A stretch of DNA of 62,790 nt, the filler included, from Rhabdomonas costata (taxonomy: Eukaryota): the NCBI GenBank assembly GCA_019059605.1. It is 48 parts of 48 records of this genome, joined end to end, with 100 filler letters (N's around TTAATTAATTAA, not from the genome) between each part and the next. Parts side by side here need not be neighbours in the genome. Positions count along the whole stretch, not along the records: positions 48,483 to 49,690 come from JAHMHO010023501.1; 47 more parts are not named here. One strand, written 5' to 3'. The notes under the pieces are model-generated. The model was not told the origin of the DNA and searched no databases. It saw only the letters and a program-made list of their open reading frames with translations. How positions within the stretch are numbered: position 1 is the stretch's first letter; each line of letters starts with the position of its first letter. Positions 38,890 to 57,700 of this stretch are shown here, in pieces. The translations under genes and the position numbers were made by a program.

Positions 38890-40622
38890 CTACCGGCTTT
38901 CCAACGCAGCTCCTCGCGGACTTGATATAAAGGGCTGCCATTGCAGAAGGAAGGGTGGTGAGAAAAGTGACGTTTCCGAAGGGAAGATGTTTCCAACGAA
39001 CATAACACAACGCCTTGTACGACCCGCGGAATGTATGCAACGACGCATCAGGTGTGACAAGCCCAACGGTTCAACCAACTTCATGTTAAGATGTGCTGAT
39101 GCCAACGATGGTGCCAAATGTTAAGCTGTGAAAGAGGCAAGCCAGCAACACTTACCAGAAGGGCACCCCGTTTTGCAGCGGGACCAGCATTGTCTCGGGA
39201 CCTGCAACCCACNNNNNNNNNNNNNNNNNNNNNNNNNNNNNNNNNNNNNNNNNNNNTTAATTAATTAANNNNNNNNNNNNNNNNNNNNNNNNNNNNNNNN
39301 NNNNNNNNNNNNGCACCCTTTGGGATAAAAATGGGATAAAATATGAAAACTCGCGGTAATGGCAGTATGCTCCCCCCCCCTATATTTTCCGTCGAAGGTT
39401 TTTGTTGAAGATGGTCGTTAATACACGCTCTGCGGCTTGCCTCGACAGCTATGCAAATGTATGTCAGGTCTGCAAATGAAGGTCATTTTGGTCTGGGTGG
39501 GCAAACGAAGGTCATTTTGGTTGGAGGTCGATCGCCCCTCTGCTCAGTGACTTCGGAGGCCCCGATCAGCGCTTTTGGTGGGCTTTCTGTCAGGAAACGA
39601 TCCCTTACTCCAAGCGGCGAAGTTGGCAGGAAGTTTCGTAGAGAAAGACAGGATGGGGGTGGACTTAGACCTCGTCGCTGTGTGCATGAAGGGTGTTCTG
39701 TGCGGAAAAGGGGCAAGAGGTCGTTTACCTCCTGCCGAACCTGTCCGTGCTACTTCGACTGTGACATTGTGCAGTGGTAACGCCGTGTTTCCTTCCAGAG
39801 TTTTAATGCATTTTGTATACAGGGGTGTCAGCCCTATCGCGATTGCAGACATTGCGCTGGGATGGGGGGAATCAGCTGCTCAGTTTGCGCTGTTGATGAT
39901 TAATGATTGATTGATGATCAAAGAGGTTGGTCGATATTCATGACGTGACCTGCATCATCAGTCGGAACGCCACCACGTCCCAAGGACGTGAACCCGCCCA
40001 ACCCGCCCAACCCGCACGCTCACGAAATCAGGAGGCGGGAACCGCGGACCTGTTGATAATGCTCTCGCCAGAGGATCGTCCCGACAAAGCAGAGGGGTTG
40101 GAAAGGCTGCACTTGCAGTATTGTGGTATTAAGAATCTTTGCGTGCATTCTTACGCACACACTGGCGACTCTCTCTGACTGACATCCTCAGTGATATTCC
40201 CGCGTGACTTTTTTCCAGACAACCACTGTATTTCTGATCCCTCTCTTTGTTCGCTGCTTGCTTTTCGGAATTTTCTTATCTCCTCCCTTCCCAAGTTTCC
40301 TTTGGATGCACCGAAGTTCAGCATGACATCGGGCTCTCCGGCTGGACCCTCCAGCCCCTTCTCGCTGGAACTTTCCCTGCCACGGCACTGCCAAATCAGG
40401 GACAATGGCGGAAGGAAGACCTCACGGAGGGACCCAGGATCCGCTGCAGGGGAAGAGGCGGATCCTTTGGTCACCTTGGACCTTATCGCGGGCCAAGCGG
40501 TTGGACGGAATACCCCACAACCNNNNNNNNNNNNNNNNNNNNNNNNNNNNNNNNNNNNNNNNNNNNTTAATTAATTAANNNNNNNNNNNNNNNNNNNNNN
40601 NNNNNNNNNNNNNNNNNNNNNN

Positions 40623-40859
40623 CACCACAAGGCGAACGTCAACCAGGCTAGAAAGAATGGCGATACGCCTCTGATTGTGGCTTCGTACTTCGGGCATGCG
40701 GAGGTAGTAAACTTGCTGCTTGGGTCTGGTGCTTGTGTCGAGGCGAGAGATGAGTATGGCATCACGGCGTTGGAGTGGGCTCGGCGCAAAGAGCACACAG
40801 CTGTGGAGGAGGCATTTCTTTCTTATCCGAAGGACCGTGCAAGCTCGCCGCCACTTTGA
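40623..40859 (+). CDS. Ankyrin-repeat protein, C-terminus
   Basis: ANVNQARKNGDTPLIVASYFGHAEVVNLLLGSGACVEARDEYGITALEWA, then stop. Confidence 0.93.
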   Translation, partial: HHKANVNQARKNGDTPLIVASYFGHAEVVNLLLGSGACVEARDEYGITALEWARRKEHTAVEEAFLSYPKDRASSPPL

Positions 40860-43452: not shown

Positions 43453-44739
43453 CGGTTCCTGTTAGTGCTTGTTGTGTGCTTCCTTGGTGTCTCGAGCGTT
43501 GGTTGTAAGGGTGTCGATGTCAAGCTGAGTGAGTGTGGATGCTGACGATGCGTGGATCTTGCGTTGTTGGCTCCTGTGTTGGTGATTCCTGTGTTGTTGT
43601 GCGTATGTTGACTCCGATGCCTTTCTGCTTCCTGTGTTTCTGTCTCCATGCCTTCTGCTTCAACCATGCTCTCTACCAGCACTGTGTGTGTGTTCCTGAT
43701 GCCTTGATGCCTTCTGTGTTTGTTGAAATGTGGAATTCTGACGCTCCTGTTGACCTTGCTGCTGTTTACGTGACCACTGCTTCATAAGTGCTTTTGTGTC
43801 GAAATGATGGTGTTGGTGTTTCTGATGTTGAGGAAGGGTTTCTGTGAAAAGTGCAAAGTGATGTTGGCATTCCAACAAGGTTTCCTGGAGAGTAGGGGTT
43901 CATGTCTTTCGCCTTCCACTTCGGATGGCTCCTTGAATGGAATATTCGCTGTGGCCCGCTCGGAGGTAGCACGCGATAGGACGTGAGAGTGCGTAGTGAC
44001 ACGTATAGAAAATGGTGGTGACCGGAACCGTGCTTATGCCGGTTGAACGAACCATGGATGCGGCCCAGGGTCCCACGTGCTTCAGTGGCCTTACATGTTT
44101 GGCAAAGATGGAACTGTTCTCTGTTGCCTGTTGCGCCAGCAAACGAGACAAGGAAATCTTGTGGCAGTAATTGGAGGACAAATGGAAGAAACACCCTGTG
44201 CACACCAGGCTATAAAGACGCGAATGCACTCCCCAATTTTCCCACAGACACGAAGAAGGAACATTCAAGTGTTGACTGTCTGTTAGTATCAGAAACAGTT
44301 TGCCTAGCAAATACAACTGCAGATGATATCTACATGCGCAACTGCGCAAGAACATCACCAGACCGACCTCTGTCTCCCAAGCAAACTGCGGATAAACTAC
44401 AAGGGTACAATGCTGGGAAAAGGGTGAGTGCGATGAAAGAGCCCCAAAAACCNNNNNNNNNNNNNNNNNNNNNNNNNNNNNNNNNNNNNNNNNNNNTTAA
44501 TTAATTAANNNNNNNNNNNNNNNNNNNNNNNNNNNNNNNNNNNNNNNNNNNNGTTTGTGGTTGCTGCGTTGCAGTATCTTTCCTCTTCATCTCCTCTCTG
44601 TCCCAAGGCAAGATACTGCAACGCAGCAACCACAAAGACAGACTGAAAACCACAGGAAACACAATGAAACAGAATGGAAGGCCACTTCCAAGCGGGTGGT
44701 GGTGGTGCAACGGGAAGGGGTGTGCAGCCTGTAACATGC

Positions 44740-45113
44740 CTCGTAGACTTTCTTCATCAACTCCTTCCACTGCTTGTCCACAGTGCTGAAGGTCTTGGAG
44801 TCCTGCGGCCACTGCCGGGTGATCTCCGGGCTGTTGAAGATGGACTCCAGGTACATCCAGTTCCGCTGGAACTGTGCGAAAAAGGGTGAGCATTTCGCAT
44901 TGCATCTGAATGAACAGGAAAGTACTCAACAACCTAATCTCGCCTCCAACGACAAGGATGACAACAATATGCAGTGAAAGAAAAAACACCAGCAAGGGAG
45001 GCAAATAAAAAGTGAAGCTAAGAACCTCCAGCCACTTGTCCAGGGTCTCATTCATGTACCGGATGTCGCGGTCCCACTGCTCGGTGCGGGTGCGAAGCCC
45101 ACCCGTGCAGAAC
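44740..45113 (-). CDS. Axonemal dynein heavy chain, DHC_N2 region; exons 45113-45026 and 44871-44740
   Basis: [58 protein letters not shown], the hallmark Q..W.YLE.IF motif. GT-AG intron 44872-45025. Confidence 0.95.
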
Positions 45114-48382: not shown

Positions 48383-48980
48383 NNNNNNNNNNNNNNNNNN
48401 NNNNNNNNNNNNNNNNNNNNNNNNNNTTAATTAATTAANNNNNNNNNNNNNNNNNNNNNNNNNNNNNNNNNNNNNNNNNNNNGTTTTGGGGTACCCCCCA
48501 CTCCACTGGACAGTACTCCTACCTTACGTCTCGCTGAACGCTCGCCTTCACCCTCTCTTGAAGGCGAACTCATCCTTCCTGAACCTCGTGAACCCTCCCC
48601 ACCAAGTTCGTACTCCTCGGACGATTCCTCCCCCATTGGAGGGAACTGGATCCTACTACCATCCCTCAAACTTCTCCTGAGGATGTGCTCCGATGGGTGC
48701 GTCATTCCAGCCGAATCTCCCCATCAGACTACGAGGATGACGCATTTGCCTCAACTATTGCACCTGTCAAAATTTTTGAACCAACCGTGCCGTTGCCGCG
48801 AGTACTTAACCAACATAGTCACCACCGACTCCACCACATCATTCTTCGAGGCAGTGTTGTTTCCGACCCCTAATAGACGTGCTTGCCCCAAGATGTCATA
48901 CCGACGAGGATGAGTTGCCTCGTGACTGCCCTGAACTTCTACCGCGCACCCCTGGTCGCACCCCGTGTCCGGCCTTTGCG

Positions 48981-49428
48981 ATGACCGAAGATGTGATGTT
49001 ATGCCCTTCCGTTTTCAAAGCCATATGCCAGAATTTTGATGTACATCCCCTTATAGACCTTTTCGCATCAGCGGAACATCACCAATTACCATTTTACATC
49101 ACCACAGACGTGAGTGATCCAGATGCGTTGGCATGTAATGCTTTTGTTTTTTTGGGACCCAGACTATCAGCTGTATGCTAACCCACCCTGGTCCCTCCTG
49201 GACCATGTAGTCACCCACATTTGCCACGATAGATCCAGAGTATTGTTGGTAACCCCGAACTGGCCCGAAGAACCCTGGCGCCCCATCCTAGACCGTATCA
49301 CCGTTCAACGTCAAGAATGGACCCAACCCCTATACCTTTCACCTCATAAACGTTTACGCCCCGCACCTAAATGGAATACATTGTTCTCTCTAGTAGACGG
49401 CTCTTTGTGCGACCTTTCCTTTTCTTAA
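48981..49428 (+). mobile_element. Dam-like DNA N6-adenine methyltransferase domain of retroelement type, with one frameshift at about 49147-49153
   Basis: EDVML...IDLFAS (49056-49070), NAF, YANPPW (NPPW 49180-49191) and LLVTPNWPEEPW. Intronless. Confidence 0.8.
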
Positions 49429-49790
49429 TTTCTGTCATTTTCAGGCGGCCTCTGAGAAACCCTCCCCGACTACGAGGAGTTTGCTCCGAGGAACGTGACG
49501 ACCCGAACCCCTTGGCCTTCGGCGTTGGGGTTGTTTACTTTTTCCTCTTTCTTTCGTCCTCTCATTGCTTTTCCTTTCTCCGCTCTTTAACGTTCCTGAT
49601 AACCTACCGCATCATCACATCCATTACCCTTCATCCACCCAGGTGCAATGACCGGTAAACACAAACCACACCACCCAAAACCCCCAAAAANNNNNNNNNN
49701 NNNNNNNNNNNNNNNNNNNNNNNNNNNNNNNNNNTTAATTAATTAANNNNNNNNNNNNNNNNNNNNNNNNNNNNNNNNNNNNNNNNNNNN

Positions 49791-52900: not shown

Positions 52901-54206
52901 GGAAACCCCCCTTTGGCAGACCAAAACTCCCATCCACAGAAAAATACCGGATTTTACCAGAAAACTGAAGAGGAACTGCAGAATTTTTCTCATTTTTTGA
53001 TGCACCTTTGCTTTCCTTTTCCAAGATTTTACAAATTCTTATCCCGTCGCTCTATTCCCGCATTTTTCCAATCCGAAGAGGCACCCTGGTTACAGTGCGT
53101 TTTTTGGTTCCTTCCAACGTTTTTGTTTTGGATTGGGAAGGAGTGATTTTCAACTAAATTTCTATAAAAAAACCAGGACAGTATTTTTAAATCCCGTAAG
53201 TATCACTAAACCGGGCCTTGAGCCCAGGGCGCGGTGGTGGATGCCGATCAATCTTACCTGGTAGCAGACGTTTGGTACCCAGCATGTGTAACGGCTCAGG
53301 ACACGTAGGAGAGCCTTCGAGTGGATGAAAAAGATAAAGAACACTTTGGTGTTCGCGGTCGTGAGAAATTTCAGAATGATTTTCGACGGAGTAGAGAGAT
53401 TGGTAGATATACGAGTTTTGAGTGGAATGGTTGACGAGCTAAAGATTGGAAGTTCAGCGCTTGAGTTGAGAAGAGAGGAGAGCGTTGTTGCCGCAAGAGC
53501 AGAGATAAATTCTGTTGGTGAGATGAGACTTCAGAAAAGCTCAAGAGTTGATGAAGTAGTGGTGCATTTGGATAAAACCATTGGAGGAAGTCACGGAAGA
53601 TATATGGGAGCAGTTGAATNNNNNNNNNNNNNNNNNNNNNNNNNNNNNNNNNNNNNNNNNNNNTTAATTAATTAANNNNNNNNNNNNNNNNNNNNNNNNN
53701 NNNNNNNNNNNNNNNNNNNTTTTTTTGGCTCCCCATGCCCTCATCTAGCACCGAGATCGTAAGAATTTGATGTCCTCGACGGGCACCTTCTTAGTATTTA
53801 TACCACACAGTTTGCGATCACCACTTCAGTTGAGGGAGGAAAAAAAGAGCCACATGTGTGTGTCCTAGTTTTTTCAAAATGGCGAAACTGCAGAAGTGAA
53901 ATCAATGTGAGCAGGATTCCCGTTGCTCTCGCTGCGAGGAAAGAGGTCATGCATAGGAGTTGACTTGCCAACAGGACTTTCCGAACTTACAGATCATCAC
54001 AGGGTTCAGCAAAAAGCGAAAAAAAAAAGCGTCTTTGGTACTCCACTAGTTCAGGTGGGCAACATATCAGATATCATATATTGCGTGTAATGGGTGTGCT
54101 GTTACCCACGCATTTTTCTAAATGGGTGGAAAACAATGGAACGCTGCTGCAGAGAAAGAGAAAGGGCACAAACGGCCCACAGAAAAAAACAGAAGCGACG
54201 CCGCAC

Positions 54207-54783
54207 CATGTAGTTGATCTTCCCGGTGTTCTCCGGGTCCACAGCCGCCAGGAGCTCCGCGGCCTCGTCGGGGCTGAGCTTGTCCGAGCCATACGTCGTC
54301 AGCGCATGCTCCAAAACCCCCGTGCTGACGCAGCCCGGGGGGACGTTGTCCGTCTCGAAGACCTTGAAGGCGGCCTTGAGCTGCTCTGGGGTGTAGTCTG
54401 CTTGCACCCGGCGAGACATCACCGTGACGAATTCTGTGTGAAAAAGCACCGTACGGGCAAACAAGAAGGAAACGTTAAAAAAACTTACAGGCTTTGCTTG
54501 TCATTTTTTTTATAGAATTTTTTCGATCACGCAACGTCATGGTTACGCTTGCAGCGAGCAAGTTCGCAAGGGTTTCTTTCAATCTTCAAATGTCCAAAAA
54601 TTGTTTCTAGTGCAAACAGCCGAATCGAAGAGACCAACAACCGTTGAAATCAATGTCTCCACTTCCATCGGCGTCAACTTCCTTCATCATGGCCTGCAGC
54701 TCCTCCTCCGTGGGATCGCGACGGAGCCGTTGCAGCAGACCGCGCAGGGGCTCGGGCAGCGACCCGCCATCCCTCCCCGCCAT
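54207..54783 (-). CDS. Calmodulin-like EF-hand protein resembling outer-arm dynein 18-kDa light chain LC4; exons about 54783-54642 and 54433-54207
   Basis: PTEEELQAMMKEVDADGSGDIDFN|EFVTVMSRRVQADYTPEQLKAAFKVFE...ALTTYGSDKLS...VDPENTGKINY. GT-AG intron 54434-54641. The 5' limit is uncertain. Confidence 0.8.
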
Positions 54784-57700
54784 GTCCTCACAAATCCACA
54801 ATCGCACACTCTCAGTGGCTGACCCCTCTCCTTCGGTTATTAATGATAAAGAAGCCCTTGGAAGCCACCAAACGACGCCGGAGAATGTCGAAGGAGGTGT
54901 CACGGGCACCCGCACGGTTACAACCAACANNNNNNNNNNNNNNNNNNNNNNNNNNNNNNNNNNNNNNNNNNNNTTAATTAATTAANNNNNNNNNNNNNNN
55001 NNNNNNNNNNNNNNNNNNNNNNNNNNNNNGGTGGTGGGTGCCGCGGGTGCCGGGGTTGCGGAGGCTGTCGCGGGTGCGGGGGCTGCCACCACCCCAAAGA
55101 AAGCGCCGAGTCCACGGAGAAGGTACGTTCCTTCGCAATCCCTGGGTCCTTTTTGCGTGCGGAGCGCTCCCCTTCTCCAGACCTCTCGTCAGTTGGTATA
55201 TTAGTGATGGGGTTCTACCGCGTTGATATGGCTGCAGCCCTGTCTCTCACACAGCCTCTCCGATGGCTCCACTATAAATGGTTCCTTCCGCTTCTTGCTA
55301 GTTGTCCACAACTGCGAAGGAAGGCCGAGCTGTCCTTTGCATTGCAAGGCTAGCCAAACTGCGCAAAATGTACACAAAAAGTCTTTGTTGGGATTGGATG
55401 CAGCTCGACCAACACTTCAGACTCCCTTATCCAAGTGAATGGTCATGCAGTCGCTGCCCATCCTCACTGTCTTGAACGCTTGTCACCTTCGAACACTTGT
55501 CCGGGAAAGCACAATCCCCTGAAACAATCAGCACATAATTCCCGACCACGGGAAGCCGTGGGAACCCCACAGGTAACAGTTTGTGATAGCGAGAAGACAC
55601 TCCGAGACGATGTCTGTGGCGAGTAGGAGAGGGTTCCCTCCAGCACTACACGAGGAGACAGCGCGGGGTAGGTATGTGTGTCACTTACAGCTGGCAAGGC
55701 GCGTTAATTGTCGATAGCGAGCAGGTGAAGACGGTGAGACGGCAGAGCAAAGGTTAACCCATGTCTCCTGCTGGATCAGGGCAGCAACTTGGGGCAGCGC
55801 GCTGGTTGGTGTCGTGGACGCGCTCGAACGTTGGCCACTGATGCAGGGGTGGGGGTGGTACCAAAAAAGATATAAATAAGTGGCATTACTTCGGCAGTGT
55901 ACCCAAAAAAAGGGTAGGTTCCCCCGCCCCCTGGGAAGGCTTCCTAACCCCATTAAACGCATCCTGAAGGCCCTAACCCCCTGCAAGACGAATACGAAGT
56001 CAGTCTACTGGAAATAACCGTCACGAATATGTTCAAGGATCGAGGAATCATGACCATGTAACCCTTTCTTCTTTCTGCCCACCTCAGTCTCGTTCGCCTC
56101 AATTGCCTTGTCTCTTCCGCCGAGAATATCCACAGCTGCGTCTTGCTGATTAAGAACACACTGTCGGTACCTCGCAGACCACGCAGATACCACCCAGATG
56201 AGTGTCCAAGCATCTGGAAGCATCTGGGTAGCTCTAACANNNNNNNNNNNNNNNNNNNNNNNNNNNNNNNNNNNNNNNNNNNNTTAATTAATTAANNNNN
56301 NNNNNNNNNNNNNNNNNNNNNNNNNNNNNNNNNNNNNNNTGTGGTGGGGGTTTTCTTTCCTGAATGCGCGTACAAATCTTTTCTCAAATCGGAGTGAAGC
56401 GTCAACAACCATCCCACAGCCTATCTGCAAAAGTGTGCTCTGGCGCAAACAATGGGTGAATGGGGTGGATGGACGCACCTCGCACAAGGCCGTATACCAT
56501 CAGCAGACTGGAGGGAACCAGCACCGCCCCCAGAAGCTGCCGAGAGCCGTTTGAGGAGGAGGGACCAGAGCTCAACAGCCGAAGCAGCTGCCGGGTTGGA
56601 GCCCGTAGGCCCTCCTCCACCCACTGCGCTCCCCCACCCAGCACCTTCATTGCTCGGAGAGAGTGCCGGAGGGAGATGCGAAAAAAAAACGCAGGCAAGA
56701 TCAAATCACGACAGACACATCTAAAGGGAGGTGTGCGAGATAATATGGGCCCCAATGTCCACGTAACTTGCCCAAACTCAGCACAACTCCAGCGCTGCAA
56801 AGTAATCTAGAATAGTGCGATGTTGATACGGCACAGACAGCTTGGGAAACATTGTGCAACTCTCAGCGTGAACGATGTGGGTGCATGTGTTTGCGTGTGT
56901 GATGACAATAGTTGGCGAACCTATGAGTGGAATCCTGACGGCCTATCTAGCAAGCAACTGGACAAGGATACAGTTCGGAATCTCCGGCCCTAACGCCCTG
57001 AACGAGCAAATGTTTAGTGTCTATCCCAAGCTCCAACTGGCCATCAAAAGCAAATTACAGGAACGATTTCTCACGAAGTGAGTTGCAACCAACACCAGGG
57101 CATTGCACAGCAACACACACACACACACAAGCACAAACACACGCAGACGGGAAAACTAGTTCGCGGGTTCTGTCAGTTAGGAGGCAATCCCAATTCCGCG
57201 GTGGGTTGCCCACCAGACCCACCCCAGTGATTGGCTGTTCCTGGGGACAGCGGAAGCCGATGCTCACGGCAGACAAAGTGCAGCACGACCTCAGCCAAAA
57301 CCGCATCGACCCACCGGACGAGGTGAAGGTTGTCCTTGTAGTGCGTCGGCCATACCGAAAGTGAGGCATGAAAGATGTCCACAGACGGGAACCCATGGGC
57401 GCCCATGACATGCCTGCGAAAAAACAATACCCCAGAGGTCAAGCACTCTGTGCAATCCTTGGCGAAAGCAAAGGCACTCATTCCCGGTAAGTTACGCAGT
57501 CTGACGTAAAGCAGAACCCAGACCGCAACACACCGCACGACCAACAAAANNNNNNNNNNNNNNNNNNNNNNNNNNNNNNNNNNNNNNNNNNNNTTAATTA
57601 ATTAANNNNNNNNNNNNNNNNNNNNNNNNNNNNNNNNNNNNNNNNNNNNGTTTTGGGGCGTTTTGTTGGAGCTAATCAATTTCGTTAATTGGCATTCACT

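Follow-up and report, generated by a model that had tools for sequence, protein, structure and literature searches.

The window, a stretch of 62,790 nucleotides from Rhabdomonas costata (GCA_019059605.1), comprises 48 contigs of about 1.2 kb that are joined via artificial N/TTAATTAATTAA/N spacers. One of them (G000:C23501, 48483-49690, about 1.2 kb; JAHMHO010023501.1) carries a methyltransferase-like (MTase) domain that is preceded by a linker and followed by a spacer and the beginning of a further open reading frame (Table 1). Its sequence identifies this copy as the decayed, truncated 3′ end of the pol gene of a Ty3/gypsy LTR retrotransposon. Elsewhere in the window, there are exon-like fragments (44587-44925, 54102-54500, and 54607-54981 on the minus strand; 40575-40859 on the plus strand), which we take to resemble dynein heavy chain, EF-hand proteins, and an ankyrin repeat. 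A candidate ORF start at 53292-53619 (+) resembles the N-terminal part of the pol or gag regions of the G-rich elements in style.

Table 1. Features of the contig under study and of the large 3′ ORF of related families.
Feature	Position	Strand	Basis
Distal Pro/Ser/acidic linker between integrase SH3 tail and methyltransferase	48483..48980	+	Overlap with L033 and L161; frames
N6-adenine methyltransferase-like domain, N-terminal half (DLFAS 49056-49070, NAF 49137-49145)	48981..49152	+	Motifs; in-frame fusion in relatives
Frameshift in T-rich run	49145..49152	+	Pairwise comparison with read-through copy L002
Methyltransferase, C-terminal half (NPPW 49180-49191, TPNW 49252-49263); Pol stop codon 49426-49428	49150..49428	+	
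Internal 3′ spacer with pyrimidine tracts and GAGGAAC...CGAACC motif (49488-49509); no LTR start	49429..49647	+	
Low-complexity Pro/Thr/Ser-rich ORF (putative), beginning only; cut by contig end	49648..49690	+	
Large 3′ ORF	L064:581-3184 (G000:C818); also L175, L180, L193, L027, L008, L069		

All motifs by which an earlier note had recognized a Dam-like domain are present on the plus strand where they had been placed. When the bases of the contig were shuffled 2000 times, D.FA and NPP[WFY] occurred together on one strand only 5 times, so the motif set is unlikely to be due to chance. The domain is not intact, because DLFAS and NAF are out of frame with NPPW, the break falling into the T-rich run near 49145-49152. 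A sister copy that is 96% identical to the copy in the window (L002) has one open frame across the break; the frameshift represents either decay after insertion or a homopolymer error of the assembly. Two further frame changes, near 48635 and 48815, are found in the linker when it is read against L033 and L074, and the ATG at 48981 probably lies within Pol and does not serve as a start codon. The alleged lack of introns in an intron-dense genome and the proposed edges of the linker correspond to the ends of contigs of about 1.2 kb.

Overlapping copies in the same genome connect the linker to an integrase. In a G-rich family, a 329-aa open frame on L103 leads from the SH3 tail of an integrase (PF24626, E 3.9e-13) into an acidic linker and overlaps L082, whose 273-aa open frame continues from the linker into the MTase. 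In a C-rich family, L139 spans the end of the integrase core, the SH3 domain, and the beginning of the linker, and the combination of linker and MTase is found on L071, L063, and L151. The subfamily represented in the window can be tiled in the same direction: its linker is 95.7% identical to L033 over 322 nt, L033 overlaps with L161 (87% over 470 nt), and L161 starts with the last part of an integrase SH3 tail (matching L139 with E 3.5e-6); no single contig of this subfamily extends undeleted from integrase to MTase. The order RT-RNase H-integrase is present on L073, and RNase H-integrase-SH3 on L223; the integrase-MTase junction of L073 was taken as a deletion product and not as primary evidence.

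A census of the regions upstream of the MTase covered 240 distinct fetched stretches, of which 73 contained the domain and 22 had at least 500 nt of upstream sequence. An integrase core or SH3 domain was located upstream on the same strand in 9 of the 22, a biased rate given that the stretches were chosen partly through SH3 searches. One of the remaining stretches had an RNase H and another a 3′ ORF, which are both read as deletion or recombination junctions, and 11 had no recognizable test domain. The sole contig that leads from RNase H to the MTase (L032) joins a Ty3-type RNase H to the middle of the linker. There are also deletion derivatives in which the same linker or MTase end is joined to a protease (L036, L221) or an RT (L201). 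The RT of L201, which is fused to an MTase end of the type in the window, is 70% identical to that of a public relative (P0006, see below) but only 26% and 20% identical to those of two DIRS-type elements.

Internal deletions were encountered on L036, L221, L163, L169, L040, L201, L032, and L073; they fuse the linker or MTase directly to an LTR, a protease, an RT, or an RNase H. Several of the protease-to-linker derivatives have similar junctions, which suggests amplified non-autonomous families. A loose search for tyrosine recombinases in the genome (seven candidates) yielded two matches, which is a lower bound; both look bacterial and lack an MTase. Phage_integrase had no match in the 148 ORFs scanned among the 256 listed. 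The bacterial look of the tyrosine recombinase contigs (L241, L242) suggests some bacterial contamination in the assembly.

Intact relatives of the element are present in public data. A profile search recovered 107 longer proteins among 8000 scored candidates, and the best 11 of them have the MTase at the C terminus. Both P0006 (1763 aa, 52% identical) and P0009 (1688 aa) have the domain order protease-RT-RNase H-DDE integrase-SH3-linker-MTase, and P0127 has the same order as P0006 from the RT onward. Partial relatives of the integrase-MTase type are P0001, P0004, P0122, L206, L210, and L212. The integrase of the intact relatives consists of H2C2, DDE core, and SH3; their linkers, of 264-487 aa, have a high content of Pro and Asp/Glu, and the MTase is terminal, with the protein ending within about 13 aa. 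In P0008, L066, L210, and L217, Pol extends by about 60-140 low-complexity residues beyond the MTase, and in L066, NPP is replaced by TPP. The suspicion that the domain is carried by a retrotransposon whose architecture differs from that of DIRS elements is therefore borne out by the succession integrase-SH3-linker-MTase in overlapping copies and public relatives, and the DDE integrase lies beyond the linker both in the tiling within the genome and in the intact proteins.

The chromodomain of chromoviruses is located behind the SH3 tail of the integrase. No chromodomain was detected in any of the six intact or near-intact Pol proteins of the C-terminal type (P0001, P0004, P0006, P0009, P0122, and P0127), and the 19 proteins scanned gave no match to Chromo or DNA_methylase (DNMT) at E ≤ 0.1; the scanned flanking ORFs were likewise without a match to chromodomain or DNMT. 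A different arrangement is found in P0042 (1504 aa), an intact Pol of the Ty3/gypsy type whose Dam domain lies between RNase H and integrase and represents a separate capture. This placement agrees with a lineage described in the text of a preprint (Fernandez-Moreno et al., bioRxiv 10.64898/2026.05.21.726589). A quick maximum-likelihood tree was computed for 65 domains (9 from this genome, 17 of the C-terminal type, P0042, and 38 hand-picked representatives labeled DIRS-type by inference from RT and Dam without integrase); in it, the domains from this genome and those of the C-terminal type form one branch of 26 that is separated from the 39 others (SH-aLRT 98.6).

A whole element is represented by L214, which comprises gag (Retrotrans_gag, E 1.3e-8; zf-CCHC; Ty3_capsid), a pol frame of 1980 codons that ends in the MTase, and about 2.1 kb of 3′ sequence, along with a purine tract, a TG...CA stretch (about 490 bp), and a primer site. 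A tblastn search for the gag of the subfamily in the window gave no match. The element on L214 is repeated in tandem with 100% identity, each unit having a single LTR-like stretch, probably through assembly collapse; the contigs are too short for two flanking LTRs with a target-site duplication. The sequence TGGTAGCAGAGG, a tRNA primer-binding site, presumably that for initiator-Met, follows the CA-ending sequence in both L214 and L040, the latter carrying a linker of the type in the window, and has 215 matches in the genome versus 15 for the reversed control. On L259 (G000:C4003:308-445), L250, and others, the primer-binding site is tandemly repeated after the LTR end with a spacing of 55-85 nt.

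The proposed LTR start near 49495 had to be abandoned. The GAGGAAC...CGAACC motif, which starts 59 nt past the stop codon, lies in internal 3′ sequence: the region 49430-49690 matches eight contigs, and none of the eight has a boundary at the motif or continues to a primer site or gag. The region directly follows the MTase in five of them and follows an RT via a deletion into the MTase in another; the other two are short, one being a local duplication. Compared with what precedes 30 of the 215 primer sites, the region gave no real match (best 14 nt, E 0.08), and the LTR-like repeat of L040 and L252, which is tied to the subfamily in the window, is unrelated to the proposed LTR start. In a sister family, the LTR begins about 1.3 kb after the MTase, and in L214, the distance is about 2.1 kb.

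The spacer is followed by CAG and, 5 nt later, by the ATG at 49648, which opens the predicted Pro/Thr/Ser ORF; this ORF continues on L002, L004, L005, and L199. In G-rich families, a large ORF is located a few hundred bases past the MTase. It has 868 open codons on L064, where it runs on past the stop, and the full product is probably longer than 1000 aa. This large 3′ ORF has 106 genomic matches and encodes a helical core, about 400 aa long, that is conserved; its 25 relatives in public data are short and unnamed. Searches for a Pfam family, an Atlas match, and a match among proteins of near length were blank, which proves neither novelty nor absence; the structure model is of low confidence (pLDDT 52.6), and its best fold match (Z 5.5) is uninformative. 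Metagenomic relatives (L206, L208, L209, and L213) have ORFs of 170-340 aa immediately after the MTase. The downstream ORFs of the different families are mostly unalignable, and in the metagenomic set only those of L206 and L208 align with each other.

The assignment of the domain to Dam-like N6-adenine methyltransferases is corroborated by its predicted structure. At the level of sequence profiles, the assignment held only in part: the two broken halves in the window had no Pfam match in four frames, whereas open sister copies match Dam (PF05869) weakly, with that of L002 (E 0.016) under the cut-off. In the clade of the C-terminal type, matches to Pfam Dam range from E 8e-5 to 0.07 and are below the curated cut-off, and among 48 aligned members, 40 match Dam and 13 match PCIF1_WW at E ≤ 1. 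Sequence-profile searches of the PDB (queries A1 and A4) gave chance-level matches only and no methyltransferase. The AlphaFold2 model of L002, computed from 15 natural copies, has a pLDDT of 86.9 and a pTM of 0.85, and the fold that it predicts is that of an N6-adenine methyltransferase. Its best match among solved structures is PCIF1/CAPAM (Foldseek E 5.7e-6; VIA Z 11.6, rmsd 2.7, 134 residues), which occupies the top five positions of the Foldseek search of the PDB and the top position in VIA. The next VIA matches are rRNA adenine methyltransferases, with Z up to 9.8, and then the Dam enzymes of T4 (Z 8.6) and E. coli (Z 8.1). Among predicted viral structures, phage MTases of the DNA N6-adenine type are the best matches (E 7.9e-9 for an unnamed protein; 1.3e-8 to 1.5e-6 for named ones), and viral PCIF1-like proteins (1.6e-6) rank behind them. 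NPPW is retained in 62 of 65 close relatives and in 93 of 132 distant ones (groups split by score per column), and DLFA is also strongly conserved in the clade of the C-terminal type, more so than in DIRS-type relatives.

The genome contains five close DNA matches and at least 150 matches at the protein level (150 of 300 candidates scored). They fall into several families that share 41-63% identity with L002, with one outlier at 29%. Twelve open copies give 66 pairs. Most of the pairs between families are synonymously saturated; the nine unsaturated ones have a dN/dS of 0.07-0.23, whereas seven within-family pairs with few changes range from 0.23 to 2.4. This is the pattern of a domain that is under purifying selection in active elements, as seen between families, followed by neutral decay of the inserted copies. 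Decayed copies aligned to L033, L002, L103, L139, L013, L141, and L173 have C>A and G>T transversions at least as often as transitions (for L141, C>A 0.081 vs. C>T 0.038), and the CpG excess is small; the transversion excess could reflect an unusual mutation spectrum or DNA damage during library preparation. Three MT-A70 exon matches are located on two contigs of the host and are not assignable to AMT1; one of them looks METTL3-like.

Dam-carrying Ty3/gypsy elements have been described recently. The preprint text (bioRxiv 10.64898/2026.05.21.726589) reports five lineages of such DAM-LTRs, including ichthyosporean and Euglena groups, whose copies have more 6mA than other LTR elements; it also states that Dam domains expressed in E. 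coli produced no 6mA and treats a host AMT1 as an association of DAM-LTRs and not as their definition. By its sequence, the element in the window is a DAM-LTR: an integrase-encoding LTR element with a Dam-like domain and a retained NPP motif. It shares with the DAM-LTRs of the preprint text the Ty3/gypsy Pol, the DIRS-related Dam-like domain with NPP motif, the many copies, and the orphan decayed remnants. It differs in that the domain is the last in Pol, following integrase, SH3, and a linker of 264-487 aa, and in that neither chromodomain nor DNMT was detected. The main text of the preprint gives no explicit C-terminal placement and does not mention the extra 3′ ORFs of the families described here, but either this placement or this genome could already be included in its Fig. 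2b and supplementary tables. Literature searches listed no description of DAM-LTRs besides this preprint. The earlier view of an unusual element was right as regards an architecture other than DIRS but overstated its novelty, as DAM-LTRs are already the subject of a preprint of May 2026.

DIRS1-like elements have a homologous domain with the motifs DLFAS...NAF...NPPW...P.W (profile E 1e-21 to 1e-4) but carry it directly after RNase H and encode a tyrosine recombinase, whereas the elements described here have a protease, a DDE integrase with SH3 tail, a tRNA primer site, and an RT that shares little identity with its DIRS-type counterparts. EpiLTRs, which the preprint text characterizes by chromodomain, DAM, and DNMT (bioRxiv 10.64898/2026.05.21.726589), are also LTR elements with a Dam domain, but like chromoviruses they differ from the polyproteins scanned here, in which searches revealed neither chromodomain nor DNMT. 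PCIF1/CAPAM and phage Dam (PF05869) share the compact N6-adenine MTase fold and the NPP(W/F/Y) motif; at 12-20% identity, they are stand-alone or WW-fused proteins and not parts of a Pol polyprotein.

A conventional origin of the locus is hard to reconcile with these data. The domain might belong to an ordinary DIRS element (RT-RNase H-MT-YR) or to DIRS pieces nested by chance in gypsy copies, as the domain family is DIRS-derived, most of the distant matches are proteins with RT and Dam but no integrase, and chimeric contigs are common in the genome (e.g., L067, L071, L073, and L081). However, the DIRS order is largely refuted by the integrase, SH3, and linker between RNase H and MTase. Uninterrupted integrase-MTase frames in many independent public sequences, the separate branch of 26 domains in the quick tree, and the two tyrosine-recombinase matches of a loose search, both bacterial-looking, against at least 150 MTase matches all argue in the same direction, which renders an origin from DIRS elements very improbable. 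Contamination with a bacterial or phage Dam gene would fit the severe fragmentation of the assembly and the presence of bacterial-looking contigs (L241 and L242) but is refuted by copy number and context: at least 150 diverged and often broken copies are linked to retrotransposon domains, the GC content of the contig (0.51) lies within the range of the contigs of the window (0.39-0.57), and the closest relatives are Pol proteins of LTR elements. We consider the chances of a contaminant practically nil, and even the two explanations combined are highly improbable.

Explanations that retain the Ty3/gypsy architecture but assign another role to the domain deserve more weight. It might be a non-catalytic or weakly catalytic binding module in the slot of the chromodomain, tethering the integration complex to chromatin that is adenine-methylated or otherwise open. 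Its C-terminal position on a long, flexible linker and the absence of a chromodomain from all six Pol proteins are compatible with such a role, as are the lack of activity in E. coli in the preprint and a passage in Iyer et al. 2016 (PMC4738411) that calls DIRS domains "likely inactive", and the 6mA enrichment of DAM-LTRs could stem from the choice of insertion sites. The strong conservation of NPPW and DLFA, which exceeds that in DIRS-type relatives, the full MTase-like fold of the model, and the variable position of the domain (as in P0042) count against a tether, which we regard as unlikely. An element of the same architecture might also encode a PCIF1-like adenosine methyltransferase that acts on RNA, be it the element transcript, the A next to its cap, or the primer tRNA. 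This would account for the negative DNA assay and is in line with the ranking of PCIF1/CAPAM and rRNA adenine methyltransferases among solved structures, the PCIF1_WW matches, and the assignment of DIRS domains to the PCIF1 clade (probably PCIF1-derived and likely inactive) in the respective passage of Iyer et al. By contrast, predicted phage DNA N6-adenine MTases outscore the viral PCIF1-like proteins, Dam is the far more frequent Pfam match, the PDB ranking mirrors which relatives have solved structures, and the domain of 140 aa lacks the rest of PCIF1 (chains of 482-494 aa). An RNA substrate is a possibility that we also rate as unlikely, and slightly more doubtful than a tether.

That the MTase ends a Ty3/gypsy Pol behind integrase and linker is very nearly certain, and we assign a probability of about 0.5 to the reading that combines this architecture with a DNA-6mA-writing mechanism, the writer function being the part for which the odds are roughly even. 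As a part of Pol, the MTase would be packaged in the particle and reach the new cDNA or RNA:DNA hybrid along with the integrase. There, it would most likely use SAM to form N6-methyladenine on the element's own DNA. New insertions would thereby start in a transcription-permissive state, which a host maintenance enzyme could keep, as in the model of the preprint. This sequence of delivery with Pol, 6mA deposition, and host maintenance has about an equal chance of being right or wrong; the absence of 6mA upon expression in E. coli reported in the preprint text and the fact that the nearest solved structure is the RNA enzyme PCIF1 speak against a 6mA writer. More tentatively, and with a lower likelihood, the elements may form a distinct, widespread, chromodomain-less Ty3/gypsy lineage with an MTase-fold domain in the slot of the integrase tail whose role is other than DNA 6mA writing, perhaps PCIF1-like methylation of the element's own RNA or the reading of adenine-methylated chromatin for integration; several families also have 3′ ORFs of their own, among them one for a conserved protein (at least about 900 aa) without known family or fold, which may cooperate with the domain. 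If so, the E. coli assay would have failed because the domain does not write 6mA on DNA.

The copy in the window adds little by itself because it is dead and truncated. P0006, P0009, P0127, and L214, in which the motif is fully kept, are intact natural test cases. They bear on a conflict over the origin and substrate of the domain, which the preprint text places with phage Dam and DNA (bioRxiv 10.64898/2026.05.21.726589) and the passage in Iyer et al. with PCIF1 and RNA or inactivity (PMC4738411). Elements of the DAM-LTR kind are a recent addition to the Ty3/gypsy retrotransposons, in which the transposon may place an epigenetic mark on itself.
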